Assembly: GCA_016185945.1 (NCBI GenBank)
Contig: JACPMR010000002.1
Location: forward strand, 10,999 to 74,998
Direction of reading: 5' to 3'
From: Candidatus Woesearchaeota archaeon
GTDB taxonomy: Archaea > Nanobdellota > Nanobdellia > Woesearchaeales > GW2011-AR4
DNA: 64,000 nt
Part shown: piece by piece, positions 10,914 through 64,000 of the stretch
How the letters are laid out: the number at the start of each line of letters is the position of its first letter
Numbering within the stretch: position 1 is the first letter of the stretch
Made by a program: the position numbers and the translations under genes
Notes under the pieces: model-generated
Told to the model about the DNA's origin: nothing
Database searches by the model: none
What the model saw: only the letters and a program-made list of their open reading frames with translations

Positions 10914-12203
10914 TTGATTGCATTTCTATTGCTTATAGCTATTATTCTTATTGGTTGTGCTGAAAATAAAACTGATACTGGAAAGACTATTCCAACTGCT
11001 CAGGTAGTCGCGAGTAGCGAAAAAATTGCCAACAATGTATCAACTCCTGAAAAGATTAAACCGAAAGTAGAAACAAAGCCAAAACAAGTTGAGATTAAAA
11101 AAAAGCTGGCAGAAGAAGTGCCAAAAAACAAGACGACTGCTACAATATACGACCTCAATAAGTTAGAGGATGATATAAACAATGTAATGGGAAGCTTGTA
11201 CAGGTTCCACAGAGATCCCACACATACAAATTATGTTCGCTCGAATGAGTTAAAGTACTATGTAATAAACGTGATTCCTGATAAGAAGGAATTTATCAAA
11301 AATTCCGAAGATTTCTGCATGAAATATTGTGCAGAACACTGGGATGGCTGGAAGTACTTCTTTAATATGAGCAGTTTTAATGCTCTAATCCCTCTTCTAG
11401 GAAAGGAGAATTTCTCGACAGATCAGCAGTATAACGATTATACAAAAGAGGTTATATTTGTCAATTTCACTGTAGAGGAGAACGTTTTTGAATTAGAAAA
11501 TGGAAAAGTTCTGGAATACCAAGCATTGCCTTGGATACAAACACCATTCGGATACTTTGAAGGCGCCTATGAGGACACTTTGCTGATTTACAAGATTTAC
11601 TGCACGCCAAACTTAACCATTTTTATAAGACCAAAATGGGATATTTTTAAAGTGTCATTTCCAGCAGCCAAATCTGAGGATGTGTACAAAACATGGTTAA
11701 ATTATATCTATCCTATACGGAAAGAATTACTTAACATGTCCAATGAACTTCTTAGGAAATGCAATGTAAAAAAAGAATTTTTTGATACCTATCCCTTTGA
11801 AAGTTATTATAAATCTGAAGTGTTGACAGTACACTGGCGCCCGTACCTAAAATCTTTCTTGAACTTATCAAGAAATGTGAGCATCGGTGTAGAACCCTTT
11901 TCTAGTGTTGGGGAGCTGGTGTTAAAGGAAATCAATGTTTCATTTATAAATCATGAAGAGTTTGAGTTATATGGTTTGTCTCTAAGAATTATAGTAATCC
12001 CTGATGACATGCCTGAAGTTGTTTATTATGACAATCCATTTACAAATTATCTTGCACAGGGTAAAGCTTTTAGCAGGAGTTTCAGCAAAGACGTTAAATT
12101 TACAGACAATCTAAAGATTGATGTTGTTTTATATACAACTGAGCAAAAAGGAGAAATTAGACCCTTAGAATTAACTTACTCCAGAAAAGATTTTGTAAAG
12201 TAA
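10914..12203 (+). CDS. secreted/lipoprotein-like hypothetical protein
   Basis: N-terminal LLLIAIILIGCAEN (signal peptide plus lipobox-like Cys). 429 aa. No recognisable catalytic motifs. Confidence 0.55.
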   Translation: MIAFLLLIAIILIGCAENKTDTGKTIPTAQVVASSEKIANNVSTPEKIKPKVETKPKQVEIKKKLAEEVPKNKTTATIYDLNKLEDDINNVMGSLYRFHRDPTHTNYVRSNELKYYVINVIPDKKEFIKNSEDFCMKYCAEHWDGWKYFFNMSSFNALIPLLGKENFSTDQQYNDYTKEVIFVNFTVEENVFELENGKVLEYQALPWIQTPFGYFEGAYEDTLLIYKIYCTPNLTIFIRPKWDIFKVSFPAAKSEDVYKTWLNYIYPIRKELLNMSNELLRKCNVKKEFFDTYPFESYYKSEVLTVHWRPYLKSFLNLSRNVSIGVEPFSSVGELVLKEINVSFINHEEFELYGLSLRIIVIPDDMPEVVYYDNPFTNYLAQGKAFSRSFSKDVKFTDNLKIDVVLYTTEQKGEIRPLELTYSRKDFVK

Positions 12204-45454: not shown

Positions 45455-46123
45455 CTAAGTCTCCTTATTTACTATACTTAAACACATATCATATAATGCG
45501 TCCTTCTGGTAATCCTTGCCCCATTTTTCACAGTATTGCAGTGCTTGTTCCTTATTTTTTATCATTATTTTTCGTACCCCAATCATAAAACAATTAAATC
45601 CCATATAAAATTGCTCTTTATCTTCTACACAATAATTAATAAGTTCTTTATACGACATAGAGTCTTTAATCTCTGCTTCCATCTTATCAAAACCCGTTAG
45701 CTCCTTTTCTTTAGGTTGTTCTTCAAGTTCTTTTTTTTCAAATTCACATCCATATTTGCTTTTTAATTCCTTAAATTCTTCTAAATATTCAGGTTCAAAA
45801 CTCATAATCCATCTTTGATAACCCATTTCGCAAGCATTTGCATAATAAGAATTTTTTTGTTTTCTGCAGTAGTTCAAATCATGTGTTAAACTGGTTACGA
45901 ATGATAAACAAAAAGCTTTGTTGGATTGTCTTTCATTTGTATCATCGGGCATTCGTTCACATAAATCAAAATCTTTATTTTTACAAACTAATTTTAGAAA
46001 ACAATCTTTTTCAGCTTCGCTATCTTTGTTCGTACAACTATTAATTTCTACCTTGTTTGTGTTTGAACAACCACTTAAGATAAATGTAACAACAAATAGA
46101 AATACAATCGTTTTTGAATTCAT
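45455..46123 (-). CDS. Cys-rich secreted/lipoprotein-like hypothetical protein
   Basis: Signal peptide plus LSGCS lipobox-like motif. 16 Cys. Confidence 0.5.
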   Translation of the reverse strand: MNSKTIVFLFVVTFILSGCSNTNKVEINSCTNKDSEAEKDCFLKLVCKNKDFDLCERMPDDTNERQSNKAFCLSFVTSLTHDLNYCRKQKNSYYANACEMGYQRWIMSFEPEYLEEFKELKSKYGCEFEKKELEEQPKEKELTGFDKMEAEIKDSMSYKELINYCVEDKEQFYMGFNCFMIGVRKIMIKNKEQALQYCEKWGKDYQKDALYDMCLSIVNKET

Positions 46124-49289: not shown

Positions 49290-49658
49290 TTATTCAAGTT
49301 GGCAACCGCTTAACTGGCTTAATTGTTCCAAAGTTAATTCGCCTTCTATTCTTTGCCCTATAAATTCCCACGTTGGATAAGCCCTTATGCCGGCATCATT
49401 GCAAAACTGAGTTTGCCCTGCCTGGTTTGGCAGAGAACATTCAATATAGTTTATGTATTGCCTGCTTTCTCCAAACATTTCTTTTTGGCTATTGCAATGT
49501 GGGCACCAATATGCGCCATACATCTTGGCTCCAGAGTTTGTCAGGCATTTGGCAAAATCATCATATTTTGAAGATTTAACAACATTGCCTGTTGTATTAG
49601 TGCAACTGGCAATCAGAAGCCCAGTGACAAATAAGAAAATCATTGTTTTTAGGTTCAT
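49290..49658 (-). CDS. thioredoxin-fold lipoprotein (CxxC thiol-disulfide oxidoreductase-like)
   Basis: Signal peptide LLIASCT. WCPHC motif. Confidence 0.6.
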   Translation of the reverse strand: MNLKTMIFLFVTGLLIASCTNTTGNVVKSSKYDDFAKCLTNSGAKMYGAYWCPHCNSQKEMFGESRQYINYIECSLPNQAGQTQFCNDAGIRAYPTWEFIGQRIEGELTLEQLSQLSGCQLE

Positions 49659-51079: not shown

Positions 51080-52018
51080 TTACTTCTTAAATGCTGTTTT
51101 CATGCTCCAGTTGAATCCAATGTCCTCAATGGTTATTGAATTATTGTTCAAAGAGTCCAAAAACTTAAACTTTTCGTTTTTCTCAAAGCAGCTTCTATGC
51201 CACCATGAAGCACTATCGGAGTTTACAGCTTCTATAACCCTTGCATAGGCTCCTGCATCAAAGTGTATGTACTCAACTACAAGCTTTCCATCATCAGCTA
51301 CGGTGCATCTTGCCACAAACGGCTCTGCAGTCCTTTCCAAAACTGGAGAGTTTGCCTGCAACGCTCCATAGTAGACAGTTCCTGTAATGTTAGCATTACC
51401 GGCGACCATCAATCTCTGGTTTGGGGCAGTTGTGCCTATGCCGACGTTGCCTGCCTCGCTGATTCTCATTCGCTCATTATTGTCGGCGTTGCCTCCCGTA
51501 TAAAACCGAATAACTGCTGCCCCATTGGTGGAGGTGATTGACATCCCTCCTGCTCCGTTAGTTGCCAGTTCTGCGCCAGCCTGCTTTGCCGAGCCGCTAG
51601 AAGTATACGCAGAGCCATAATGATTGAAGAAGTTGGCCGTGACATCATCGGTAACCTGAATTATTGCGCTGGAAGATGTGCCTCCTCCTTGATTTGTAAC
51701 TTTTAATCTCGTCGATGCATCTTGGTCATGTCTTACTTCCAGCCGCTGTGAAGGGCTCGCTGTACCAATGCCCACCTTGTTGTTTGTTGAGTCAACAAAC
51801 AATGTATCCGTATCAATGAATAAGTTGTTTGAAACGTTTAAAGCACCATTTTCCGCTGTAATGCCTGCTCCGCTTATGAGGATGGCTGCCATTACGAATA
51901 GAGCTAACGCTAGGCAGAGCTTTAATATTTGGGTAAAATAGGAGTTCAATCTGGAAAATCTGTTCAAAACAAATCTTTCTTTTTTATTTTTCCTGTATGT
52001 ATTTCTTCTTTTTTCCAT
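51080..52018 (-). CDS. membrane-anchored protein with two copies of a VGIGT(A/T)xPxQRLxV tail-fibre-like motif; GC-rich relative to surroundings
   Basis: TM helix LCLALALFVMAAILISGAG. KVGIGTASPSQRLEV and NVGIGTTAPNQRLMV. A start at the internal Met (52018) avoids overlap with the upstream gene. Confidence 0.55.
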   Translation of the reverse strand: MEKRRNTYRKNKKERFVLNRFSRLNSYFTQILKLCLALALFVMAAILISGAGITAENGALNVSNNLFIDTDTLFVDSTNNKVGIGTASPSQRLEVRHDQDASTRLKVTNQGGGTSSSAIIQVTDDVTANFFNHYGSAYTSSGSAKQAGAELATNGAGGMSITSTNGAAVIRFYTGGNADNNERMRISEAGNVGIGTTAPNQRLMVAGNANITGTVYYGALQANSPVLERTAEPFVARCTVADDGKLVVEYIHFDAGAYARVIEAVNSDSASWWHRSCFEKNEKFKFLDSLNNNSITIEDIGFNWSMKTAFKK

Positions 52019-52028
52019 TCCATTCACC

Positions 52029-54122
52029 TCATGGACTGCCATTCTGTGTTAAAGTTCCTTTCAAAAATACGTATCCAGTCTCATTCACAAAAGCAACTAG
52101 ATTGCTTGAATTGTCCTTTATCCTGAAGTCATTTTTATTTGTGTCAGAGGTTAAAGTACCTTGATTTTCAAATAAAGTTCCATCAATGTACATGCTTCCA
52201 TTGTTTTCTATGATTAAGACATCATTTAGATTGTTTCTTATTTTAAAGGCAAAGTTGTCTGTTGCCTGGAAGTTGGAGTTTTGTTCCAAATTTCCTTTAA
52301 TCACAACATTGCCTGCATCTCCAAACCATGCTATGTTGCTTCCGCTTGAGTTTTTGATGAGGAATTTGTTTATGTCTGGAAGAGAGGTTGAGTTAACTTT
52401 AAAAGTAAAATTAATATCAGCCCAGTCACTCATAGAATTATTATCAAAAGCCAAACAATTCCAAATATAATTTCCATTGGGGATGTTATTAACTATAAAA
52501 GTTTCATAGTCAGAAGTTCCTGTTATATTTTTTGTTTCATCAGCTGCCCATACACCAGAAATATTATGGTATAAAGTAATATTCTTCAGATTCTCATTGA
52601 AATCAGTTGCTGAACAATTGAATATTAGGTTTCCTGTTGTGCTTATGTTGTTGTTTAATGGACTTACTAACGTTACGATTGGTGGTACTGGATTGGATAT
52701 TGTGAATGTTCCAGTGGTGTCATTTCCAGTATTTATACCATCTGTAGCTAGGATTTTTATTTTATATTCATGTGAATTGATAAAGTTAGATGAATTCAAT
52801 AATAAAGTAGTGTTTGGGTAATCAATTTCTATGGTTGATAAACTACTACCATTATCACTTGATATTAATATTGCATATTGGATTGTATCATTGTCTAAGT
52901 CGGAAGCGTTCCATGTTATATTAAAGGATTTGTCGAAGACTTCACTGCCTGTTGGGAAGGTTATTGTGATATTGGGTGTGTTTTGGGACACATTTATCTC
53001 AGATTTTATTACTGTTTCATTTTCTTTTATCATAATCGTGGTCACGTTATCTGTATATGGTAAGACAAAAGCGAAAGCTGTAACGTTTGTTTCGATTGTA
53101 TCACCACCAATCTCCGTTATCGTAAAATCAACATCAAATGTGTGATTGTAAAAAAGAGTACCATTAGATTCGAGAATAATAGAAAAATTACCCGATGAAG
53201 TCTGGTTTTCAATGCTCTGCTCATCTAAAATGTAAGAAATATCTGTAATTAAAGTTCCATTTTTAAGTATGGTTCCACTAAACAAAATTGCTTTCTCGAC
53301 ATTCAATAATTCAGAAGGTTCTTCTAGTTGTTCAAGTAAATGAATGTAAGTTAAGTTATCAATCCATCTATTATTTTGATCGCCTGCATTTCCCATAAAA
53401 TTAAAAAGATTGATTGTGTCATTTTGTGCTTTCCAAGGAACTAGTTTTCCTATAGTACTTGTATCACAACCTGTACTTTCATCTAAACAAGAAGCATCTA
53501 AAGAATTATCATTATCTAAATCGCCATTTGGACAAAAACCAGATATGAAAATAAATCTTGTATCTTGATTTTCCCAAACAGTATCGTTATATTCATCACA
53601 TATGCCAAAAGTGTGTGCCAATTCATGTGCACTTCCATGTCTAAATCCTTCTTCGATAATGACTGCTTTTATGTTAGCAGTTTTTAATGCATTATTTTTA
53701 TAACTTATATATGTATACCCTTTTGTATTATTTTGTCCATGGTTAAAAAACCATCCTTGAGGGACTATTCCAACTACTCTATCTGTTTTATTACTAAGTC
53801 TTCCCTCCTTGTATAATTCTTTAAGGAGATCGAACTTTTCAATTGTACTTAATGTACTTCCTATATTTGAACTAGAAATTCCACGTCTAACATTAGTGAT
53901 AAGTCCTGTATCAGAAAGTGGATAAGTCCTATTTATGAATTGTATACTATTCCCCAATCTCTGATCAAATTCAGAAGATTTTTCATCTATTGCCACAAAA
54001 TCTATTTTTAGTTGTCTTGTTTCTATTACATTTACATGGGTAGTTTTAGAAATAGCTACAACATTATTGATTACTATCATAAATATTATTACTTTTAATA
54101 TAAGTTTGATTATTTTTTTCAT
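52029..54122 (-). CDS. secreted zinc metalloprotease (HExxH) with many N-glycosylation sequons and a C-terminal cassette shared with 56730-58742
   Basis: Signal peptide. GSAHELAHTFGICDEY. Dozens of NxS/T. C-terminal ~110 aa near-identical to the other protein. Confidence 0.7.
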   Translation of the reverse strand: MKKIIKLILKVIIFMIVINNVVAISKTTHVNVIETRQLKIDFVAIDEKSSEFDQRLGNSIQFINRTYPLSDTGLITNVRRGISSSNIGSTLSTIEKFDLLKELYKEGRLSNKTDRVVGIVPQGWFFNHGQNNTKGYTYISYKNNALKTANIKAVIIEEGFRHGSAHELAHTFGICDEYNDTVWENQDTRFIFISGFCPNGDLDNDNSLDASCLDESTGCDTSTIGKLVPWKAQNDTINLFNFMGNAGDQNNRWIDNLTYIHLLEQLEEPSELLNVEKAILFSGTILKNGTLITDISYILDEQSIENQTSSGNFSIILESNGTLFYNHTFDVDFTITEIGGDTIETNVTAFAFVLPYTDNVTTIMIKENETVIKSEINVSQNTPNITITFPTGSEVFDKSFNITWNASDLDNDTIQYAILISSDNGSSLSTIEIDYPNTTLLLNSSNFINSHEYKIKILATDGINTGNDTTGTFTISNPVPPIVTLVSPLNNNISTTGNLIFNCSATDFNENLKNITLYHNISGVWAADETKNITGTSDYETFIVNNIPNGNYIWNCLAFDNNSMSDWADINFTFKVNSTSLPDINKFLIKNSSGSNIAWFGDAGNVVIKGNLEQNSNFQATDNFAFKIRNNLNDVLIIENNGSMYIDGTLFENQGTLTSDTNKNDFRIKDNSSNLVAFVNETGYVFLKGTLTQNGSP

Positions 54123-54478
54123 CTTATTCTAATAAATTTTCTATAAATAATTGTCAGCAAACAAGACACTAAATAATAATATGCTAACAAAACAATAAAA
54201 ACTAATATAAGTGAAGATGTGAAACCATATCTTTCTATATCTATGCTAATATTTGTTATATCTGTAATAAAAATTAAAGGATAAATTGGGCCAGTAACTA
54301 AAAAAGACGGTTTTGATACAATAACGTCTCCAACCTGAGTGTAATAAGCAAAAGGTACTATCCCAAAGAATCCTAAAGTAGCTATAATGATAAATATTAA
54401 GGTGGTTAATATTTTCCATTTCGTCGGTCTAAAAAACTCAACTAAAAACTCATAAATCTTAAATTGTTTTTTTTCCAT
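54119..54478 (-). CDS. small membrane protein
   Basis: 119 aa with 3 hydrophobic segments. Confidence 0.4.
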   Translation of the reverse strand: MEKKQFKIYEFLVEFFRPTKWKILTTLIFIIIATLGFFGIVPFAYYTQVGDVIVSKPSFLVTGPIYPLIFITDITNISIDIERYGFTSSLILVFIVLLAYYYLVSCLLTIIYRKFIRIR

Positions 54479-54551
54479 TTTAGTTCACCTTGACCTTGCA
54501 AGTTGCTACAGTTTCACTCATTTTCACCACCTTTTTTATTTTTTATTTAAA

Positions 54552-56558
54552 TTAAGTAACTTCCACTCTAATCTCTTTATTACTTCCAGCAACATCAGGA
54601 ACAAAATTTAAATCAATATTTTTTTCTTGTCCAGCATTTATAGTTTCTATTGTAGAATTTTTTAGGGTATTTTCAAAAAACAAACTAATAGTAATATTTT
54701 TATTATCTATAAAATTGTTTTTTATAACAGATCTTACTAAAGTAGTTTTACCTTTAACCAAATCGACATCTTTTATGACTTGAATAGGAATGATCTCTTG
54801 AATAGTGAATCCTATTGTTAAATTTGATTCATACCATATTACTTTATCATCATTTTGTGATGCGCTTAACACATCTGTATCATTATCTTTATCGATATCT
54901 ATTGCAAATACAGACCATGCACCATCTGCAGTGATTGATATATTATGTGGTATAAAATTTGGAGGAACACTACCATTGTTCTCGTACCAAGCTATTTTGT
55001 CATCAAATTCAGAAGCACTTAATACATCAATATCATTATCCTTGTCTAAATCTATTGCAAATACTGATCTTGCTCCATTTGCATCAGTTGCTATAATTCT
55101 AGTAGTCCAATTTGGAATTGAACTACCATTATTTTCGTACCATGCTATTTTATTATCATCAACTGATACACTAACTACATCAATATCATTATCACCATCG
55201 ATGTCTATAGCAAATACCGAAGATGCACCTGCAGCAGATGTTGTTATATTATGAACTGTCCAATTCGGTGGAGAACTGCCATTATTTTCATACCAAGTAA
55301 TTCTGTTATCATCCAATGAAGCACTTACCACGTCTATATCATTATCTTTATCTATATCTTTCGCATATACAGACCATGCATTGTTAACATTTGTTGAGAT
55401 TATGTGTGTGGTCCAATTTAGAGGTGATCCTCCTTTATTCTCGTACCATTCTATCCTATCATTAAAACTTGATTCACTAACCACATCAATGTCGCTATCA
55501 TTGTCTATGTCTATTGCATATAGGCCTCCAGGGTCTTTAACAGAACTTATAATATGGCTTACCCAATTTATTGGTGAACCCCCTATATTTTCATACCATT
55601 CAATTCTGTCAAGACCATCTAGAGTGGCGATTACATCAGTATCATTATCTTTATCTAAATCTATCGCAAACACGGCAATAGGTCTGTCGGCATCTGTCTT
55701 TATTGTATAATTTGTCCAGCTTGGAGTGGATCCACCATTATTTTGATACCATTCTATTTTATTGTCAAAATTGACTGAGCTAATAACATCAATATCTTGG
55801 TCATTATCTAGGTCAGCGGCATAGACAGATAATGCTCCATTGGCTGTAACACTTATATTTCGTGCTGTCCACCCGATTACCGGATCAATAAACAATTCTT
55901 CTAATCCTTCAAGTTCTTTATTTACCTCTAAATTAATATAATTTTTATTATTGAAAGAATAAACAGAAACAGAGTAATTTAAATCAGTGATATCCTTAAA
56001 ATTATAATAATTATTTCCAAATGTTAATGTATGTCCTGTTAAAGAACTTTTATTTAAACCTGGAAACTTTCCTTTTGTAACTTCAAACGCTTTAAAGTAA
56101 ATAGGTTTTTTGCTAACAACGTATTTTGTTCTATTCCAAACAACAAAATCAGAATCTATTTCATACAGAATATTTAATTTTGTATTCTTGTTGGTATTTA
56201 ATAAATTTCTAAGAATATAACTCTGTTTTATTGGTCTTTCATCCACATTAAAGAAACTGGTATCAATTTCTTCATAAATGCTTTCAACCTCTATATTTTG
56301 GGATTTAAACTTATTTCTTATTTTTTTTTCAGAAAAAGGAAGAGTTTCTTTATCAAATGCTTCAACAGTGATATTATCATAATCAATGCCAAATCCTATC
56401 TGCTTAAATCTTTTAAGCTGATTAAACTTATCAACAGCTACTATATCATCTATGATTGGTTTTGTTTGATTACCATTTAAACTAACAGCGCTTACAATAA
56501 CAGAGAAAGAAATAACTATAATAAGGAAAGCTATCACCTGCTTTTTGTTTAACTCCAC
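54552..56558 (-). CDS. secreted FG-GAP/VCBS-repeat beta-propeller protein
   Basis: Signal peptide. About 7 repeats of DxDxDxDIDVxS...D.KIxWYENxGGSxxxW. Confidence 0.7.
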   Translation of the reverse strand: MELNKKQVIAFLIIVISFSVIVSAVSLNGNQTKPIIDDIVAVDKFNQLKRFKQIGFGIDYDNITVEAFDKETLPFSEKKIRNKFKSQNIEVESIYEEIDTSFFNVDERPIKQSYILRNLLNTNKNTKLNILYEIDSDFVVWNRTKYVVSKKPIYFKAFEVTKGKFPGLNKSSLTGHTLTFGNNYYNFKDITDLNYSVSVYSFNNKNYINLEVNKELEGLEELFIDPVIGWTARNISVTANGALSVYAADLDNDQDIDVISSVNFDNKIEWYQNNGGSTPSWTNYTIKTDADRPIAVFAIDLDKDNDTDVIATLDGLDRIEWYENIGGSPINWVSHIISSVKDPGGLYAIDIDNDSDIDVVSESSFNDRIEWYENKGGSPLNWTTHIISTNVNNAWSVYAKDIDKDNDIDVVSASLDDNRITWYENNGSSPPNWTVHNITTSAAGASSVFAIDIDGDNDIDVVSVSVDDNKIAWYENNGSSIPNWTTRIIATDANGARSVFAIDLDKDNDIDVLSASEFDDKIAWYENNGSVPPNFIPHNISITADGAWSVFAIDIDKDNDTDVLSASQNDDKVIWYESNLTIGFTIQEIIPIQVIKDVDLVKGKTTLVRSVIKNNFIDNKNITISLFFENTLKNSTIETINAGQEKNIDLNFVPDVAGSNKEIRVEVT

Positions 56559-56729
56559 ACTAACACCCCCAAACTGATTTTTATGATAAAGTACAACTCC
56601 TATTTATATTTTTTCATTTTCTCGTCTATAAATCTTGTATAATCCATTCTATATAAAATATATTTCTTCAATTCTTAAAACTTAATCGAGTTAATAAATT
56701 TTTAACAATAATTCATGTTACATAGTACT

Positions 56730-58742
56730 TTACTTCAAACTCCCCTTCAAAAACAAATAACCACCTTCATTAACAAAAGCAACTAGATTGCTTGAATTGT
56801 CCTTTATCCTGAAGTCATTTTTATTTGTGCCAGAGGTTAAAGTACCTTGATTTTCCTGCAAAGTGCCGTCAATATACATAGAGCCATTGTTTTCTATTAT
56901 CAAGACATCATTTAGGTTGTTTCTTATCTTAAAGGCGAAATTATCTGTCGCTTGGAAGTTTGAGGATTGTTCTAGAACACCTTTTATTACTATATTTCCA
57001 GCATCTCCAAACCATGCTATGTTGCTACCTGAAGAGTTTTTTATGAGGAATTTGTTTATGTCTGGAAGAGAGGTTGTGTTTACAGTGACAGAAGCAGTTA
57101 ATGAAGCAGTTACTGCAGTTGATTCGCTTATTCCAGTTGCATTTGCCTTTACATTGAATGTTCCGCCGCTGCTGAAATTGTAAGCCAGATATACAAATTC
57201 CTTTTCGTTTACAGCTAAAGAGCTTATGTTTATTGTGCTGTTTATCACATTGTTGTTGGCTGTGTCAAACTGCCATTGGACATTTGTGACTGTGTTGCTG
57301 CCGTTGTTCAGAATGACAAATTCAAAGATTTTTAGTGTTCCATTGCTGTACATCTCTGTTATAGATTCTATCTTAAGCGATACAACAACGCTTACATTAT
57401 CCTGTATGTAATAAACACCAAAATCAGATAAATTTAATATACCAAAATTGTTTGAAGAAAATGCCAGAGAGACATTGCAGTAGCCTTCAGAATCCTCGCT
57501 GCAATTTGCTAGAGCATTATTTAATTCCTGATTGAAGTCAAGCACATTTTCTTCATTGCCAAAGTATCCTGTATTATTCCAAGCCTGGCTATTATTTACA
57601 TATAAAATGGGGTTTTGTGTTGCGTTTCTAATTGTAACAGTATTAGCACTTTGTACCTGTGTTCCAAACAACAAACCATCGCTTGGAGTGACTTTGCAAT
57701 ACCATTGATCGCCAGGTGTTAAATTGTTTTTGGCCAATGTTTGAGAGTTTATATTTTGGTTTACACTATTTTTCCACCATTGATAGCTTGAATTTTGCTC
57801 TGTAAAGTTTTCTGGATCGGAATAAGTGTAGTTGCATAATAAGTCTTGTCCAGCATTTGGGATTTCTGGTAGGACACTTACATTAGAAACAGAAGGTGCT
57901 TCATGAGTTCTGTCACAGCTTTGGTCATTGCTTTGATTTATTAAAGTTGATTCATAAACAATATATTTTACACTAGGTGGAGTTACAGCGCCTATCCTGT
58001 TTATGTTTACATAGTCATTGGCGCCCCCTAAATTATCACCGCACTCTGAATCTGTATATAATGTACTATCTGGAGTGCCCTGATCATAATAATAACCTTG
58101 ATGCACATTCAGTATTGTGGCTCTGTTGTAGCAGTCTGTATCGCATATACCACTTCCACCAACCCCTGAGCATGCTACTGTATTCGGAGAGCATAATACC
58201 CCTTCTTTAACTCTGATTTTTGAACGATAAGTGCTGTCGGCATCAGCTTCTGTATGGGCCCTCATTGTCTTAATTAAATAATCAAACTCTGGATCGCCAA
58301 CATTCCCGATATAGTTGTTCATGCCGTTAAACCATGGCGAGCTTCTTTGCGTATCATCCCAAAATCCGCCTATTGCTTCTGAATCACAATCTGGAGAAAC
58401 TGGATCTACTGTAATACTTACCTCATGGTCAGCCATGTGTGTTGCATCATAAGTGAAATTGTAGCATCTTCCTGTATTTGTAGGAGTATAGCTAGAAGAA
58501 ATATCATTATCTTCCACTCTGCTGTTGTCTAAAAATCCAACGTTTGTATCAGAAGCCACTTGAGTCCAATCTTGCTTGCATACTTCCACTGTGCAATTCC
58601 TTACACAAGTTGAGCCTTCGCATTTTACGCCATTATCGGTATAGCCAGAAGGACATGCTGATGTAGTGCAGTTTATGTAAGCCAAAGTATTTGGAATTAT
58701 TAAAAATAATGCTAAAATCCATATTAAATTTATTTTTCTCAT
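56730..58742 (-). CDS. secreted Cys-rich surface protein with shared C-terminal cassette
   Basis: Signal peptide. Cys-rich N-terminus. C-terminal ~110 aa about 90% identical to the tail of 52029-54122. Confidence 0.6.
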   Translation of the reverse strand: MRKINLIWILALFLIIPNTLAYINCTTSACPSGYTDNGVKCEGSTCVRNCTVEVCKQDWTQVASDTNVGFLDNSRVEDNDISSSYTPTNTGRCYNFTYDATHMADHEVSITVDPVSPDCDSEAIGGFWDDTQRSSPWFNGMNNYIGNVGDPEFDYLIKTMRAHTEADADSTYRSKIRVKEGVLCSPNTVACSGVGGSGICDTDCYNRATILNVHQGYYYDQGTPDSTLYTDSECGDNLGGANDYVNINRIGAVTPPSVKYIVYESTLINQSNDQSCDRTHEAPSVSNVSVLPEIPNAGQDLLCNYTYSDPENFTEQNSSYQWWKNSVNQNINSQTLAKNNLTPGDQWYCKVTPSDGLLFGTQVQSANTVTIRNATQNPILYVNNSQAWNNTGYFGNEENVLDFNQELNNALANCSEDSEGYCNVSLAFSSNNFGILNLSDFGVYYIQDNVSVVVSLKIESITEMYSNGTLKIFEFVILNNGSNTVTNVQWQFDTANNNVINSTINISSLAVNEKEFVYLAYNFSSGGTFNVKANATGISESTAVTASLTASVTVNTTSLPDINKFLIKNSSGSNIAWFGDAGNIVIKGVLEQSSNFQATDNFAFKIRNNLNDVLIIENNGSMYIDGTLQENQGTLTSGTNKNDFRIKDNSSNLVAFVNEGGYLFLKGSLK

Positions 58743-61573
58743 GGCGCTAATCCAGTCACTTTTAATTTTGAATAAATCACAGTGGCATTCTTTGGAAGCC
58801 TTATATTAACAGTTAAATTTCCTGGCTGGGTGAAGTTAAGCAATTTATTCGTTAAGCCATCTGTGAATTGGTTTTGTAACTTTGTAGTTTCATTGAAAAC
58901 AATAACGTCAATAAACTGGGTTGTGCTTAAATTGCCGTCAGAAGCCTCTACTAAAATAGAATAGTTGCCAGTGTCATTAATTGTAGTTTGCCATTGACCT
59001 GAAGAGTTAAATGGTGAGCTATAGAAAAAATCTATGCTATTACCTTCCGCATCTGAAGTTGAAATCAATTGGCTTATATTGATTAAATCTCCAGCAATTG
59101 CTGTTACGTTGCTTATCTTTGTTATTTCTGGCGGTGAATTAATATTTGAAACACTAACGAAAACAGTTTCAGGACTTGCTGCTCTTTTGAATGCAATTTC
59201 TGCAACTCCGTCATTATCAAGGTCGGCAATTGCTAGACCGTTGTCTATCAATCCTACTATTTTGTAAGGATCAAACAGTAAGTTTCCATCATTTTTTAAT
59301 ACATAAACGCTTGAGCCTTTGTTTTCGCCTAAAATAATATTGTAATTTCCATCATTGTCTATATCAGCACTGCTGGGACTTATGGCTCCTGGATGTAAGG
59401 TGTTAGAAGCATCATAAATCCATTGCTGTGCTCCGCTCACAGCATCAAAAGCCCTTACAGAGCCAAGACCATCAGGCAAGGTTTTTTCCATTGTAACGAC
59501 TATCTCCATATTTGAATCAGAGTCTAAATTAACTATTGTTGGCGTCGCTCTTGGAATGTCTGTAAAGCTTATAGGAAAGTTTGCATTGTATTCATTGCAA
59601 GTTAAAGGATTAACTACATGCAGTTTATTTTCACAAGTGCTACCTGCAGCGCAAGGTGTATTAGCTGTCACATACACCAATTCATAATCATTATCTTTAT
59701 CAACATCATAAATTACAGCAGAATCCCATAAATAAGCATGCGTGTTGTTGCATAATTTGTTTAATTTTCCAGTGCTTTGATTATATTTAAGGATAATAAT
59801 TCCATATTGAGATGGAACCACAATTTCGGGATAATCATCGCTATCCAGATTTGCTATTGAAACAGAGCCATAAGCTCCTCCATTTCCTATTATATAGCTG
59901 GTTTCATTTGCTCCTGTATTTCCATTAAGAACATAAACCTTTCCTGGCCATTCATCATCGCCATCAAGCAAATCAACAACAATTACTTCTTGTTGCCCGT
60001 CCAAATCAACATCAGCAACAGCGCTTCCTCCATTAAACTTAACTCTAAAGTTAGTGCCATCAAATCTTGGCTCTAAATGATATTGCCATTTTATTGTTGG
60101 CTGTCCGCCATCAAAGTCATAAGCATAGATTGTTCCGTTTCTGTTGCCTGTAATAATTTCTTTCTTTTCATCATTATCTATATCTGCTAAAGTTGGAGGT
60201 CGATAGATTGAGCCGTCTTCGCCGCCTCTTACATTTACAGCATTCCATTTTGGTTTTGTTTCAAAGCCAAGCGGTATTTTCAAGAATGATTTTTTCTTTG
60301 TTTCAGTAGCAAACATTCTTGTAAAGTTGCCCATAACTGGCTTATGGACAAGAATTACAGTGTCCATCAAGCCATTTCCTTCCAAATCAGCAACAGAGGG
60401 CTTAACAACTTGCTGTATGTTGTCGTTTGCTGCGTCTAAGAAGAAATCAACTTGATTTTTTACATCTTTTTTGTCTTTTAAGTCGCCTTTAAGCAAAGTA
60501 AATCCAGTTCTTCTGAAATCATGGTTTTCGGTGGGCCAGTCGAAGAAATTTACTGCACTAAATAAGTCAATTCTTGAGAAGTTTTTACCTGTATCTGGTT
60601 CTAATATTTTCTTACCAGTATTTTTAAGAAGCATCTCGATATCGAATGGTTTTAAAGCAGTATCATATTGTTTTAAGAGCAAAAAAGCCCCAGCTACGTG
60701 TGGTGTAGCAAAACTAGTTCCAATAGTACACCTAAAGTCTGATATTCCCAGTTCACACAAAATCTCATTAAAGAATGTAAAACCTCCTCCTCTTTTAATT
60801 GTTTTTATATAATCTCCAGGTGCCAATAAATCCAAATTGGAACCTACATTTGTGTAACCACTGATAATGTCCTTCTTATTTACAGAACCTACTGGTGTAA
60901 CATTTCCTAAACAAGCAGGAAAATTAATTCCAACCCGACTAAATTCATTTCCCGATGCGAATATAACCGATATTCCCTTAGAAATAGCTTCAGCTACAAC
61001 TTTGGATAAATTAGAATTATAAAGATTTCCACAATTTGTATCATTATAGGTTAAATCACCTAAACTTGCACTAATAGTTGTTATGTTTAATTTTGTGCTG
61101 TTATCAATACACCACTTCATACCCTTTTCTACTCGATTCCAAAATTCTTGGTCTGATGCCGAATCTCCAGTATCTTTAAAGACTTTTATAGATACTATCT
61201 TAGAATTTGGAGCAACACCTGGAAAAATCGCATTAGTAGACGAAATTATCCCAGCAACTGCTGTTCCATGATATTCTACAGCATATGGATTAGAATCGTT
61301 ATCACCAAAATCGTAACCACCTATTACTTTTCCACAACTTTTGTCATTGATATCAGTTGTTATGTTGCATCCACCCAGACTGGGGCGGGTATAATCTATC
61401 CCATCATCAATAATACAAACTGTATTATATTGTCCTGAGATACCACTCAAATATAAATTCCAAGAACCAATTATTCTAGTAGTTGTGGACAAAGCATATG
61501 CAAATTGTACTATAAGTATTAAAGTCATTAAAATTAACAAATTTATTTTAATTCTTTTTATTAATATGGTCAT
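58739..61573 (-). CDS. subtilisin-like serine protease (S8) fused to FG-GAP repeats
   Basis: Catalytic triad contexts IIDDGIDY, HGTAVAGII, GTSFATPHVAG. 944 aa. Confidence 0.8.
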   Translation of the reverse strand: MTILIKRIKINLLILMTLILIVQFAYALSTTTRIIGSWNLYLSGISGQYNTVCIIDDGIDYTRPSLGGCNITTDINDKSCGKVIGGYDFGDNDSNPYAVEYHGTAVAGIISSTNAIFPGVAPNSKIVSIKVFKDTGDSASDQEFWNRVEKGMKWCIDNSTKLNITTISASLGDLTYNDTNCGNLYNSNLSKVVAEAISKGISVIFASGNEFSRVGINFPACLGNVTPVGSVNKKDIISGYTNVGSNLDLLAPGDYIKTIKRGGGFTFFNEILCELGISDFRCTIGTSFATPHVAGAFLLLKQYDTALKPFDIEMLLKNTGKKILEPDTGKNFSRIDLFSAVNFFDWPTENHDFRRTGFTLLKGDLKDKKDVKNQVDFFLDAANDNIQQVVKPSVADLEGNGLMDTVILVHKPVMGNFTRMFATETKKKSFLKIPLGFETKPKWNAVNVRGGEDGSIYRPPTLADIDNDEKKEIITGNRNGTIYAYDFDGGQPTIKWQYHLEPRFDGTNFRVKFNGGSAVADVDLDGQQEVIVVDLLDGDDEWPGKVYVLNGNTGANETSYIIGNGGAYGSVSIANLDSDDYPEIVVPSQYGIIILKYNQSTGKLNKLCNNTHAYLWDSAVIYDVDKDNDYELVYVTANTPCAAGSTCENKLHVVNPLTCNEYNANFPISFTDIPRATPTIVNLDSDSNMEIVVTMEKTLPDGLGSVRAFDAVSGAQQWIYDASNTLHPGAISPSSADIDNDGNYNIILGENKGSSVYVLKNDGNLLFDPYKIVGLIDNGLAIADLDNDGVAEIAFKRAASPETVFVSVSNINSPPEITKISNVTAIAGDLINISQLISTSDAEGNSIDFFYSSPFNSSGQWQTTINDTGNYSILVEASDGNLSTTQFIDVIVFNETTKLQNQFTDGLTNKLLNFTQPGNLTVNIRLPKNATVIYSKLKVTGLAP

Positions 61574-61583
61574 TTTTAATAAT

Positions 61584-61871
61584 TTATTTCAGTCTTTTTA
61601 TAGTACATTGGTTATATCTACAAATTGGAGTTCCAAATCTGCAATCTAATATAGTTCTGCAATCTTTTGTACAACCAACACCATTACAATTTGGAGCATA
61701 TTTTATATTCACAACGTCTTCAGCATGACAACATTTGTTAGGAACACAATCAGTATCTTTTTCACAATACTTTTCTGGAGGGATACTTCCTTTGTTTATT
61801 TTAGTACATGCACTTACAAAAATCATTGTAATCAAAATAAAAATCAATAATTGTTTATATTGAATTTTCAT
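61584..61871 (-). CDS. small secreted Cys-rich protein (14 Cys)
   Basis: Signal peptide plus knottin-like Cys spacing. Confidence 0.45.
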   Translation of the reverse strand: MKIQYKQLLIFILITMIFVSACTKINKGSIPPEKYCEKDTDCVPNKCCHAEDVVNIKYAPNCNGVGCTKDCRTILDCRFGTPICRYNQCTIKRLK

Positions 61872-61913
61872 AATCCAACACCTCCAAAATCACAATAACA
61901 ATTAGTGTATTCC

Positions 61914-62819
61914 TCATTTCCTCTCCACTGAAACATCCACAACATCATAACTTTGATAACCAAAATGGCAAAATCCAGTACCTTCGCAATGATTAAATTT
62001 GACAGAGTTAACTTTCAGCACATAATCACCATCAATATCAAAAGAAGTTACTTTGCTGTTTCCAAATTGCTCAAAGCTTCGAATTTGGGGTATAGGAACA
62101 CCATTTATTCTGAAAGCACAATACTTTCCATTTATCTCGCAGTATAAAATGTCTATTACATAATTCTGATTATTGAGTTTGACGCCTTTTAATCTTTCAT
62201 TTACAGCCCCTACCTTTAACGTGTATTTTGTGTTTCCTGTAATGTTAGTAAACACAACATCAGAAAAATTTTTATTTTTTTGCAAGTAATTGAGTCTGTA
62301 TTCTCTATCAAAATCTAAACTATCTTCATCAAATACTTTTGCTAATCTAGTGGTATTATTAGATAGATTAATGGTCAGATTTTCTACAACAATTGCAGAA
62401 TAATTTAGTATAGTATTATTTAATAAATTAAGCGTCTCATCACTTAAGTTAATACTTTGATTCGGTATTATTGTCCGGTTGCTTATTGAGATATTTGGAA
62501 TCAAATTATCAGTTTCAATTGTAGAAAAATTATCTACGGAAAGAGTTAAATTTATAGTATCATTGCTTATTATTGTTTGATTTTGTGTTTCATTTTCTAT
62601 TGGAATCGTTAAGTTAGTTGTTTCATTGACAGATGTTGTATTTTCAATTATAAAATTATTTACAGGTGAAACATTTAGTAAGGCATCATTCAATGTGTTA
62701 TTAATGCTAGAATTAAGCACCTGCGCACTTACAAAAATAACAGCGCCAAAGAGCAATGCAAGTACTGCAACTAATCCAAACTCGCCTTTCTTGCTCTTTA
62801 AAATGTTATTTTGTTGCAT
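61914..62819 (-). CDS. N-terminally anchored Asn-rich surface protein with >25 NxS/T sequons
   Basis: TM helix followed by NxT/NxS-dense sequence. Confidence 0.5.
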   Translation of the reverse strand: MQQNNILKSKKGEFGLVAVLALLFGAVIFVSAQVLNSSINNTLNDALLNVSPVNNFIIENTTSVNETTNLTIPIENETQNQTIISNDTINLTLSVDNFSTIETDNLIPNISISNRTIIPNQSINLSDETLNLLNNTILNYSAIVVENLTINLSNNTTRLAKVFDEDSLDFDREYRLNYLQKNKNFSDVVFTNITGNTKYTLKVGAVNERLKGVKLNNQNYVIDILYCEINGKYCAFRINGVPIPQIRSFEQFGNSKVTSFDIDGDYVLKVNSVKFNHCEGTGFCHFGYQSYDVVDVSVERK

Positions 62820-64000
62820 TAATCATCAATTCCACTGCTTTGGTTATATTCGCAGTTGTGATGTTGGACATCTCCAGCACATACAATGTAGGAGTCAGAT
62901 TAAGCATATTGACATGCTGTTCTCCCTTAGTCACATAATTGAAAGCCCATACTTTATTGCCTTTCTTAGCCATCCAGTCAAACGTTCCTCTTGCTTGGGC
63001 ATTACTTAAGTTCCTAGAATGCATCTGCTGCGCAGTATAGTTTGTATAGCCATTCAGCAAAGCATTCTGCACTCCTGCTCCAATTGCTGCGTCTCCATTT
63101 GCTTCCAAGCCAGTCACTGTAAGGCTTAATGGCCCGCTTGTGCTTGTGGAATTCATGTTTCCAGAAGTGTCTTTGCAGCTTAGATAAACTATAGAGTCTT
63201 CATAAACCAGTTCATCTTGTGATACTAATTCACAAGCATGCTCTATTGTGCCTTCTCCTACTGTGCAGTTCCTTGAGCTTCCCATTTGAGTGTAATTCCA
63301 ATTGCTTATTCCAATAGCGCAAAAAGCAAACTCGCTTGTGTTGAAGTATAGAGTTGGGGTAGTGTCGCTTGTAGTGCAGGGATTTGAGGGATTTGTATTC
63401 CAGTTTGTGCAGGAAGAGCCTTGATTGCTGTAACCTGTTATAACTGGAGGTGTTGTGTCTATCCCAGCTTCCTGCGCAAGAATCCTTCCTGTTCCATTAT
63501 TGTAAATATGCTCCCAGTCGCTGTCTTTGCCAAAAGTAAGGGATTTGTTAATGATGAAGCATTCATCCATGCCGCCTTGATAAACTTGTGTGCCTGGATT
63601 TTGGCTGTTGCTTCCTACATAGATAGCAGATGGATTGTCTAACGGCTCATTGCTATTCACGCTTAAGGAAGCTTGAGAAGAAGTGCCATTGAAAATATTA
63701 TAGCAATACATTATGTTTGATGTTAAATTACAAGTAAAACCAATCAAATGCCATGTTGCATCATTGGCAAAAATGCCTGCATTGACATAATTGGCATTTG
63801 CCGCATCGCCTCCAGTATTTCCCCTGTAATAAAACTGAACAGTGCTTGTTCCGCCAACTAAAACAAGCTGCCAATCTCCATTGGCATCTGGATTGGCTTG
63901 TCTTGTTATAACTACAAGGCTGCCTGAATTTGAATAATTAACCCAGCAGCCTACTGAAAAATTCTGCATCTTCTTGTACTCGTCAATTGCAGGAAATTTC
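62806..64000 (-). CDS. laminin-G/concanavalin-A-like lectin-domain surface protein, 5' end beyond window
   Basis: The frame stays open upstream of the listed Met (…KFPAIDEYKKMQNF…). LamG-like block WQLVLVGG...WHLIGF...IYVGSN...GGMDECFIINKSL. Confidence 0.6.
   Translation of the reverse strand, partial: KFPAIDEYKKMQNFSVGCWVNYSNSGSLVVITRQANPDANGDWQLVLVGGTSTVQFYYRGNTGGDAANANYVNAGIFANDATWHLIGFTCNLTSNIMYCYNIFNGTSSQASLSVNSNEPLDNPSAIYVGSNSQNPGTQVYQGGMDECFIINKSLTFGKDSDWEHIYNNGTGRILAQEAGIDTTPPVITGYSNQGSSCTNWNTNPSNPCTTSDTTPTLYFNTSEFAFCAIGISNWNYTQMGSSRNCTVGEGTIEHACELVSQDELVYEDSIVYLSCKDTSGNMNSTSTSGPLSLTVTGLEANGDAAIGAGVQNALLNGYTNYTAQQMHSRNLSNAQARGTFDWMAKKGNKVWAFNYVTKGEQHVNMLNLTPTLYVLEMSNITTANITKAVELMINATK

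Follow-up and report, generated by a model that had tools for sequence, protein, structure and literature searches.

The window analyzed here is a stretch of 64,000 nucleotides from a Candidatus Woesearchaeota metagenome-assembled genome (MAG), and the block described below extends from 51080 to beyond 64000. It comprises nine closely spaced ORFs on the minus strand, joined by overlaps of 4–14 nt or separated by gaps of 10–171 nt, in agreement with the single strand and tight packing noted in the original prediction. This 13-kb block is not one island but two Woesearchaeota/Nanoarchaeota-specific operons lying side by side, cassette A (from beyond 64000 down to 56730) and cassette B (from 56558 down to 51080), with the following features.

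62806..64000, minus strand: LamG-like protein, cassette A gene 1 (3' 397 codons; ORF open at the window end)
about 63469–64000, minus strand: variable Laminin_G_3-like head of the LamG-like protein, from orthologue profile matches
62809–63456, minus strand: conserved Cys-rich C-terminal half of the LamG-like protein, from the homologue alignment
about 62809–63147, minus strand: CTD-2, second shared tail module, ending the LamG-like protein, from shared tails
61914..62819, minus strand: p301, cassette A gene 2; signal peptide, linker, C-terminal domain
61584..61871, minus strand: p95, cassette A gene 3; small lipobox (VSAC) protein with 11 Cys
58739..61573, minus strand: p944, cassette A gene 4; signal peptide, S8 head, propeller, Ig-like region
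about 60611–61429, minus strand: Peptidase_S8 head of p944 (PF00082, residues 49–321)
about 59159–60541, minus strand: FG-GAP/BamB-like propeller of p944 (FG-GAP_3)
58742–59158, minus strand: Ig-like C-terminal region of p944, delimited by conservation
56730..58742, minus strand: p670, cassette A gene 5; Cys-rich chain of beta-sandwich domains
56733..57086, minus strand: triple-repeat C-terminal domain (CTD) of p670, 118 aa
54552..56558, minus strand: p668, cassette B gene 1; signal peptide, propeller, Ig-like C-terminal domain
about 54819–55856, minus strand: predicted seven-blade FG-GAP propeller of p668 (7 loops, 7 motifs)
54119..54478, minus strand: p119, cassette B gene 2; small multi-TM protein
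52029..54122, minus strand: p697, cassette B gene 3; signal peptide, metzincin-fold domain, beta-sandwich (Ig/fn3-like) domains, CTD
about 53313–54020, minus strand: metzincin-fold catalytic domain of p697, from motif and fold
53613–53627, minus strand: HELAH zinc motif (HExxH) of p697
52050–52397, minus strand: CTD of p697, matching the p670 CTD
51080..52042, minus strand: p320; type-II membrane anchor and 'GIGT' repeats resembling phage tail fibres

Each of the eight complete products has a single hydrophobic segment, at the N terminus, except p119, which has at least two TM segments; this agrees with the signal peptides or N-terminal anchors that had been predicted. A C-terminal hydrophobic segment is not found in any block protein by the TM scan. 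The block contains 150 NxS/T sequons in 4,211 aa (3.56 per 100 aa), as compared with 0.44 per 100 aa for the 47 other ORFs of the window, which is an 8-fold enrichment over this background and an about 2-fold enrichment over composition. The sequon excess goes beyond mere composition, because for none of the six large proteins did more than 7 of 1000 residue shuffles reach the observed count, and because the reversed motif [ST]xN is about half as frequent. The description of the proteins as sequon-rich applies to the block as a whole but not to p320, p119 and p95, which are not enriched. The high Asn/Thr/Ser content is also seen (27.1% versus 14.9% in the other window ORFs), as are the Cys-rich proteins, p670 having 18 Cys and the 95-residue p95 having 11. 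The suggested setting of proteins with export signals and a sequon excess in a DPANN archaeon is supported. The GC3 of the block is atypically low, except for p320 (0.44), and tRNA and Rfam scans of the window found nothing. The suggested supply of glycosylation by phosphohexomutase and NTP-transferase genes is weak, since these genes lie 25–37 kb away, in the company of genes of gluconeogenesis (GAPDH, aldolase, FBPase) and close to glycogen-type ones.

The order of cassette A, which encodes the LamG-like protein, p301, p95, the S8-propeller protein p944 and the Cys-rich p670, is kept in at least nine related genomes. The full-length LamG-like product (P0089, 465 aa) is 100% identical to the window part. 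Across 80 homologues its head can be aligned in 6–50% with about 30% identity, and its tail in about 99% with about 60% identity; CTD-2 also terminates P0031 and proteins of loci L011 and L025. The proposed LamG lectin is upheld through orthologues aligned along the full protein, which score 40–45 bits on Laminin_G_3 (cut-off 27.6) across the same region, but not by the window protein itself, as neither the 397-aa fragment nor P0089 has a Pfam match at E up to 1. Among these relatives, P0107 and P0113 (98–100% query coverage, 43–45% identity) match PF13385 at 40.7–42 bits, and a Laminin_G_3 annotation is carried by 17 of 82 homologues. PDB sequence/profile searches with the LamG-like protein gave nothing significant, and there is a weak match to a minor-tail PHROG (E = 1.5e-3). 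In the next protein, p301, a linker that is dense in sequons (23) precedes a C-terminal domain of about 145 aa, which is conserved and has four invariant Cys in an alignment of 10 orthologues; it has no relative in PDB or Pfam searches, and it sits upstream of a big propeller gene at 12 loci. For p95 the sole homologue found is in L014, between two S8 genes, and no match was obtained in Pfam, NCBIfam or PDB searches; a WAP-like protease inhibitor was considered from a motif resemblance by eye and rejected, being backed by none of these searches.

The predicted subtilase–FG-GAP fusion is confirmed in p944, which matches Pfam PF00082 with 123.5 bits (cut-off 21.8; E = 1.4e-35) and FG-GAP_3 (PF13517) with 58.1 bits in three stretches. 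The S8 triad and the oxyanion Asn are complete, with the motifs IIDDGID (D56), HGTAVAG (H102), SGNE (N209) and GTSFATPH (S287), and just four DxDxDG-type loops are found by pattern in the propeller. The best NCBIfam similarity is to a mycosin, an identity that is rejected at 95.8 bits against an equivalog cut-off of 278.75. Residues 337–944 are conserved, with 37–68% identity at at least 10 loci, and relatives have a Zn_dep_PLPC-like domain in place of the S8 head. This alternative head is putatively zinc phospholipase-C-like, as judged from sequence: on PF00882 the heads of L017, L018 and L006 score 28.4, 24.7 and 16.3 bits (cut-off 26.8), a single relative being above threshold, and the heads of L007 and L017 have the zinc-ligand motif LGxxxHLLEDxxVPxH in common. 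The fold of Zn-dependent phospholipase C is also that of the P1/S1 nucleases.

The start of p670 overlaps the stop of p944 (ATGA), and this overlap is kept in eight distinct loci. The N-terminal 540 aa of p670 are conserved (49 homologues), and the AF2 model has a pLDDT of 84, with 39–82 for the CTD part. Comparison with PDB structures gave nothing beyond generic beta-sandwich matches, and no recognisable fold relatives were found for the N-terminal domain.

Cassette B encodes a propeller protein, p119, the metzincin p697 and an anchored fibre. The FG-GAP propeller that had been proposed is p668, with 140.4 bits on FG-GAP_3 (E = 2.8e-41); six stretches are detected by Pfam, and seven blades are suggested by the motif count, which gives seven DxDxDxDxDV loops and seven WY[EQ][NS] (WYEN) motifs with a period of 51 aa. 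In L023 and L026 an orthologue of p668 is encoded upstream of the metzincin, and in L025 the two form one fusion protein (P0081). The stop of p119 overlaps the start of the p697 gene, and the N-terminal 38 aa of p119 correspond to the N terminus of P0063, the metzincin homologue of L026.

The protein p697 is a metzincin-fold enzyme from a family that is absent from Pfam and NCBIfam. Its extended zinc motif HELAHTFGICD conforms to the pattern HExxHxxGxxH/D, and 30 homologues all retain H166, E167 and H170. A near-invariant N241-x-M243-G244, 73 residues past the zinc motif, is a candidate Met-turn by its place in the sequence. The structural neighbours of the predicted catalytic domain are metzincins, not gluzincins. 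No peptidase family is matched in Pfam and NCBIfam at E up to 5 and 1, respectively, and PDB sequence/profile searches are without significant match. The prediction of a metalloprotease thus stands, but its assignment to M6/M60 is rejected, there being no family profile match and the structural neighbours being metzincins. With this enzyme, the S8 protein, the propellers and the orthologue-based LamG assignment, the combination of protease, propeller and lectin is borne out by domain evidence. The last gene, p320, shares 14 nt with the 3' end of p697; its product has a TM segment at residues 39–57 and matches tail-fibre families of PHROG with E down to 3e-14. In L023 and L026 the gene after the metzincin has the same architecture, the L026 gene being weakly similar to p320 (E = 7e-4).

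The CTDs of p670 (residues 553–670) and p697 (residues 576–691) are 92% identical and have no Pfam or NCBIfam match, including dockerin, SLH and T9SS-CTD. This domain is present in 466 representative protein clusters and ends at most 12 aa from the C terminus in 119 of 123 single-copy matches. The carriers include S8 peptidases, Tc/RHS-like proteins, MopE-motif proteins and one cohesin-annotated protein, and woesearchaeotal proteins combining FG-GAP, TcdB_midN and RHS terminate in the same CTD. Conservation is much higher in this domain than in its passengers (79% versus 38% in P0055, for example), and in some relatives of p697 a dockerin is found in its place. A literature search found general Woesearchaeota background, with no description of the CTD or of the cassettes.

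Cassette B recurs without A at three loci; it is kept in L023 and L026, and in L025 it is the single fused gene P0081. Conserved synteny, which the original prediction had named as evidence against it, is found for each operon (A in at least nine genomes, B in three more) but not for the whole block: none of 80 flanking GH57 loci carries any block gene, including a relative in which GH57 is 86% identical. The view of the block as strain-variable accessory content therefore holds for the block as a whole and its position but not for the cassette order. Variation is concentrated in the heads and tails of the proteins. In many genomes the neighbourhoods of the cassettes are ordinary chromosomal, and the cassettes are tandem-duplicated in L006 and L014. 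The blade-fragment ORFs of L007, L008 and L011 were considered as products of a DGR, which is rejected as the substitutions relative to the big gene are of all types and mostly at third codon positions; no reverse transcriptase is listed in these loci.

It is possible, with an about even chance in our judgement, that the block is a modular surface or secreted toolkit for attachment and hydrolysis, acting against the envelopes of partner cells. In cassette A, each of the five Sec-exported proteins combines a conserved with a variable part. Besides p301 and the small Cys-rich lipoprotein p95, these are the LamG-like protein, whose lectin-type head diverges fast upon a conserved Cys-rich base, p944 as a propeller with an exchangeable N-terminal enzymatic head (subtilase here, putatively zinc phospholipase-C-like in relatives), and p670, translationally coupled to p944, which is Cys-rich, built of beta-sandwiches and exchangeable in its C-terminal modules. 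To these, cassette B adds the predicted seven-blade propeller, p119 as a small protein of the membrane, p697 as a zinc protease of metzincin fold, and the fibre-like p320 with its membrane anchor. The proteins are presumably N-glycosylated and disulfide-bonded extracellularly, and their conserved parts may join into surface-attached complexes, with the CTD keeping otherwise soluble passengers on the cell surface much as dockerin or SLH anchors do. Ligands of other cells could be bound by the variable LamG head and the C-terminal modules, and the protease and phospholipase heads could open or digest the proteinaceous envelope and the membrane of the putative partner, so that a DPANN cell in need of lipids and nutrients would gain access to material of its host. 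Most Woesearchaeota are without membrane-lipid synthesis genes and are thought to be partner-dependent (PMC8421398). Genes for arginine biosynthesis and central carbon metabolism are likewise present in the window, so this cell may depend less on a partner than classical episymbionts do. A bolder version, on balance doubtful, is a DPANN-specific glycosylated complex for attachment and breaching, in which the subtilase, the putative zinc phospholipase C and the metzincin would be interchangeable warheads on FG-GAP propeller scaffolds, a hypervariable LamG head would select the partner, and the CTD would tether the complex to the surface of the symbiont, as it would numerous further exoproteins, Tc/RHS-like ones among them. 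If true, this would be machinery by which Woesearchaeota open host envelopes for lipids and peptides.

The alternative of ordinary extracellular enzymes that digest detrital protein and lipid, with propeller, LamG and Ig domains binding substrate or particles and no partner cell, is a possible though tentative one. Secreted proteases by themselves fit simple scavenging equally well. The hydrolases have AxA-type signal peptide ends and are without a membrane anchor, fermentation and central carbon metabolism are both encoded in the genome, and the secretion of peptidases and CAZymes for organic matter decomposition has been proposed for Woesearchaeota (PMC8421398). Digestion, however, leaves unexplained the conserved operons with their translational coupling to non-enzymatic Cys-rich partners, the hypervariable LamG head over a conserved base, the swap of protease and phospholipase-C-like heads on one scaffold and the terminal domain common to Tc/RHS-like proteins. 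These swapped heads, together with the tandem duplications and the CTD shared with FG-GAP, TcdB_midN and RHS proteins, are also what contact-dependent antagonism of the polymorphic-toxin type would show, the heads being weapons and p95, p119 and the ~100-aa TM proteins of relatives being immunity proteins or inhibitors; a small gene lies directly upstream of every hydrolase gene, often overlapping it. Known polymorphic toxin systems have the variable toxin at the C terminus and the immunity gene downstream, whereas here the variable enzyme is N-terminal and the small genes are upstream. Moreover, the small genes fail to track the head type (the S8-headed L010 has a TM-type small gene), and no known toxin or immunity family is matched in Pfam or NCBIfam, which makes this reading improbable.

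Also unlikely is a structural cell envelope, made of S-layer or S-layer-associated glycoproteins with their own maturation proteases. The heavy sequon load, the Ig-like beta-sandwich arrays, the lineage-wide conservation and a haloarchaeal S-layer protein weakly matched by Foldseek (prob 0.47) are in its favour, but a C-terminal TM or PGF-CTERM-type anchor is absent from all block proteins, the enzyme heads are exchangeable, and the low GC3 is not what would be expected of the gene that a cell expresses most strongly. The position is also variable, the block being missing beside GH57 in the closest relative. Such an unconserved position and the atypical GC3, with the PHROG matches of p320 and the LamG-like protein, could point to what is left of a virus or mobile element with genes for host recognition (tail-fibre, LamG). 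This is very improbable, as neither the block nor its immediate surroundings have an integrase, capsid, terminase or tRNA gene, IMG/VR scans with p944 and p320 found no relatives, and many genomes hold the cassettes in ordinary chromosomal contexts.

The proposed partner-directed toolkit bears on the means by which DPANN cells take hold of their partners and draw lipids and metabolites from them; the Woesearchaeota are not known to have a cultured representative. What had been described as a generic island of surface proteins is now resolved into defined units, namely two lineage-wide operons, a head swap and a variable lectin-type head, which are targets for expression, activity and localisation work and for domain curation. 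New to the catalogues are the metzincin family and the widespread extreme-C-terminal domain, both absent from Pfam and NCBIfam, and the cassettes could serve as genomic markers of host-interaction loci in DPANN metagenomes.

Cultivated DPANN episymbionts have large multi-domain surface proteins, such as those of the protease/adhesin type and with LamG domains that have been discussed for Nanohaloarchaeota. These resemble the block in combining an exported serine protease, adhesion-type beta-propeller/Ig domains and LamG, presumably for cell contact. They are single giant proteins, whereas the block spreads its functions over two conserved multi-gene operons and has exchangeable heads (S8 or putatively Zn-PLC-like), a metzincin and a separate shared terminal domain. 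Like bacterial subtilases with FG-GAP/VCBS and mycosin-like S8 proteins, p944 has an S8 domain with a D-H-S triad, but it is without an I9 propeptide, lies in a lineage-specific operon and has an interchangeable head. Archaemetzincin (M54), adamalysin/ADAM (M12B) and fragilysin (M10C) have no Pfam, NCBIfam or PDB sequence match to p697, which, unlike them, is exported, probably glycosylated, continued by beta-sandwich domains and a CTD, and coupled or fused to an FG-GAP propeller. The CTD resembles dockerin–cohesin modules, SLH triple repeats and the Bacteroidota T9SS CTD in being one terminal module on many unrelated exported passengers, with three internal repeats and better conservation than the passengers; it is archaeal, has no sequence match to them and is poorly predicted in fold, the likeness to these families being one of position. 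Tc-toxin TcB/TcC and teneurin-type proteins, whose woesearchaeotal versions carry the CTD, have an FG-GAP propeller beside an enzymatic or toxic payload, as in the block, whereas the block proteins are without an RHS shell or TcdB_midN and have their enzyme heads at the N terminus.

The region 51080-64000 consists of nine ORFs, all co-directional on the minus strand; at each junction, the neighbours either overlap by 4-14 nt or are 10-171 nt apart. The last ORF is cut off by the end of the window; the complete protein that it encodes is P0089 (465 aa), referred to here as the LamG protein, and the other products are named by their length in residues. In the hydropathy scan, each complete product has exactly one N-terminal hydrophobic segment, with extra TM segments in p119, and none has a C-terminal hydrophobic segment; a lipobox is present in p95. 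The island has 150 sequons in 4,211 aa, which is 3.56 per 100 aa, compared with 0.44 per 100 aa for the 47 other ORFs of the window, and this excess is about twofold above the expectation from residue composition. In 1000 shuffles of each large protein (six in all), the observed sequon count is reached no more than 7 times, and the reversed motif occurs at about half the frequency of the sequon; the observation is therefore confirmed and a chance effect is ruled out. The export signals and the sequon density thus bear out the original prediction of a sequon-rich island of secreted proteins. The p670 sequence matches, at 100% identity, the protein HYX02_00420, which is encoded on a 121-kb contig of a Candidatus Woesearchaeota MAG.

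The domain content has been assigned for four of the proteins:

58739-61573, minus strand: p944, Peptidase_S8 domain (1.4e-35) and FG-GAP_3 (Pfam)
54552-56558, minus strand: p668, seven-blade FG-GAP propeller (Pfam E = 2.8e-41)
52029-54122, minus strand: p697, metzincin-fold protease of an uncatalogued family
51080-52042, minus strand: p320, anchored protein (type II) whose repeats resemble those of phage tail fibres (PHROG E = 3e-14)

All four S8 motifs (Asp, His, Ser and Asn) are intact in p944, and p668 has seven DxDxDxDxD loops with a 51-aa period, visible in the DNA as 153-nt repeats, so that the predicted subtilase-FG-GAP fusion and the separate FG-GAP propeller are both confirmed. The p697 protein has no sequence match in Pfam, NCBIfam or the PDB, but H166, E167 and H170 are invariant across 30 homologues, and C175, E177, N241 and M243 are nearly invariant; this makes it a protease with a metzincin fold, from a family that is not catalogued. 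Its earlier description as a metalloprotease is correct, whereas its proposed M6/M60 membership is rejected in favour of the metzincin fold. The lectin assignment is supported only through the orthologues of the LamG protein: the window protein has no adequate Laminin_G_3 match of its own, but orthologues that are alignable over the full length score 40-45 bits (cut-off 27.6), and 17 of 82 homologues are annotated as Laminin_G_3. The p670 protein is a chain of beta-sandwich domains preceded by a Cys-rich N-terminal domain of about 250 aa that has no specific neighbour in the PDB. No fold or family match is found for p301 and p95 in profile-library and PDB searches.

When related genomes are compared, the island is seen to be two conserved operons: cassette A (the LamG protein, p301, p95, p944 and p670) and cassette B (p668, p119, p697 and p320). 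In both cassettes, then, an FG-GAP propeller goes together with a secreted hydrolase. Cassette A was surveyed by scanning an alignment of p944 homologues against one genome per GTDB species and reading back the loci. At least nine distinct genomes of Woesearchaeota/Nanoarchaeota have, at 37-68% identity, a p301-family gene, small ORF(s), a gene whose ~930-aa product has a head, a propeller and an Ig-like tail, and a p670-family gene, in this order. In eight of them, the stop of the propeller gene overlaps the start of the p670-family gene, so that the two are translationally coupled. The LamG-family gene is located upstream or downstream of the other genes.

Within this conserved order, the N-terminal head domains are exchanged as modules. 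Where the window's propeller protein has its S8 head, relatives have a domain like Zn-dependent phospholipase C (28.4 bits at locus L017, with a cut-off of 26.8, and weaker at L018 and L006); the motif HLLEDxxVPxH is common to the heads of L007 and L017, and the heads of L012 and L019 are of other, unassigned kinds. The LamG protein has a similarly variable head: its residues 1-245 align in only 6-50% of 80 homologues (about 30% identity), whereas about 99% of them align to the C-terminal 215 aa, at about 60% identity. Some genomes have cassette A elements in tandem duplicate: at L006 (244-6691), there are two consecutive units of p301, TM and PLC-like-propeller genes, and at L014 (379-3471), two S8 genes are found, one on each side of a p95 homologue.

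In relatives, a small ORF located between the genes for p301 and the large propeller protein is a copy of an internal stretch of 60-80 aa from the propeller of the same locus, and the stretch that is copied differs between relatives:

L007, 9977-10231: propeller-stretch copy ORF
L008, 9977-10252: propeller-stretch copy ORF
L011, 9239-9502: propeller-stretch copy ORF
L016, 10124-10573: propeller-stretch copy ORF
L017, 6529-6837: propeller-stretch copy ORF

Protein identity to the propeller is 83-87% for the copies at L007, L008 and L011, and DNA identity is 76-85%, with mismatches of all types, mostly at third codon positions. This spectrum rejects a role as templates of a diversity-generating retroelement, and these copies look like selected coding mini-genes. 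In the window, this position is occupied by p95.

Cassette B runs from the propeller through a small ORF and the metzincin to the anchored fibre-like protein. It is present without cassette A at L023 and L026, where the gene after the metzincin also has the anchored-fibre architecture of p320; the similarity of the L026 gene to p320 is weak (E = 7e-4). At L025, the propeller and metzincin are fused in a single 1216-aa protein (P0081), and in the homologue P0063, the N-terminus of p119 is incorporated into the metzincin.

The two cassettes also share a C-terminal domain (CTD). The last ~118 aa of p670 and p697, made up of three repeats of about 35 aa, are 87-92% identical, and the remainder of both proteins is unrelated. 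With HMMER run in full against 1.84 billion representatives, 466 clusters match at E <= 1e-3, and the CTD has no matching model in Pfam-A or NCBIfam. In 119 of 123 single-copy matches, the domain ends at most 12 residues from the C-terminus (mode 6). The carrier proteins are 104 to 3191 aa long; among them are a Nanoarchaeia S8 peptidase, MopE-motif proteins, one cohesin-annotated protein and Woesearchaeotal FG-GAP + TcdB_midN + RHS proteins. Two Woesearchaeotal proteins of ~2000-2400 aa (P0210 and P0301) have a Tc-toxin/teneurin-like architecture with one or two CTD copies at the end. The CTD is far better conserved than its passengers (79% versus 38% in P0055). The LamG protein ends in a second tail module of ~110 aa, which also occurs in the p670 homologue P0031 (L009) and in other proteins of L011 and L025. 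In their placement, the terminal domains follow the logic of modules for docking or anchoring, which suggests such a function for them.

The genomic position of the block varies. In 80 metagenomic loci, each with a homologue (60-86% identity) of the GH57 gene that flanks the island, an island gene is never found beside GH57; in the closest of these, L027 (86%), glycogen-synthase-like and debranching-like genes, identified by eye, occupy the island's place. The GC3 is 0.15-0.32 in the cassette genes at 52029-62819, 0.38 in the LamG gene and 0.44 in the adjoining p320 gene (51080-52042), with a mean of 0.40 ± 0.09 elsewhere in the window; in composition, the block is therefore a mosaic, despite the 14-nt overlap between the p320 and metzincin genes. 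Relatives of p670 and p697 have differing end modules (PKD, Laminin_G_3, CARDB, dockerin or beta-helix). The term accessory, as originally proposed, therefore fits the position, composition and domain tips, but not the operon cores, whose gene order is kept.

From these uncultured genomes, we infer that the proteins would be exported by Sec and then N-glycosylated and disulfide bonded outside the cell, where the conserved parts may be assembled into surface complexes. The terminal domains would tether otherwise soluble proteins, the variable LamG head and C-terminal modules would recognise ligands, and the enzyme heads would hydrolyse the envelope proteins and lipids of another cell. Such hydrolysis would fit the report that most Woesearchaeota lack genes for membrane-lipid synthesis and presumably depend on partners (PMC8421398). 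One rival explanation is that the proteins are plain nutritional exo-enzymes, a possibility raised in the same study; others are an antagonism system resembling polymorphic toxins, components of the envelope or S-layer, and a viral remnant, which is the least supported of the four. The domain types and the general idea of surface adhesin and protease proteins in DPANN archaea are already known. In the libraries and literature searched, no description was found of the two operon architectures, the head swap, the LamG protein with variable head and constant base, the metzincin family or the terminal domain family.

The two PGM/PMM genes and the NTP-transferase gene, proposed to feed glycosylation, are real, but a specific link to glycosylation of the island proteins is not supported. 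Their distance from the island is 25-37 kb, and their neighbours are the genes for GAPDH, class-I aldolase and FBPase. One relative (L001/L007) has a link to glycosylation that is closer than any in the window: there, GT2, GT9 and PMT_2/DUF6541-type membrane glycosyltransferase genes are directly upstream of cassette A (L001 1-2803). The GH57 gene adjoining the island points to carbohydrate storage and central metabolism. Four further features of the window are listed here:

10914-12203, plus strand: probable exported protein outside the island, 429 aa, 11 sequons
45455-46123, minus strand: probable exported protein outside the island, 222 aa, 13 Cys, N-terminal hydrophobic segment
48574-49226, minus strand: tandem pair of small DUF5752 genes adjoining GH57
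49290-49658, minus strand: 122-aa lipobox (IASC) protein between GH57 and the DUF5752 pair

Neither of the probable exported proteins has a Pfam match, nor does the 122-aa protein, which is missing at that position in L027. The latter has a thioredoxin-type WCPHC motif, read by eye, and could provide the island's Cys-rich proteins with disulfide chemistry outside the cytoplasm. The DUF5752 pair is kept on the other side of GH57 in 29 of the 80 metagenomic loci, which suggests a functional link to GH57 or glycogen metabolism.
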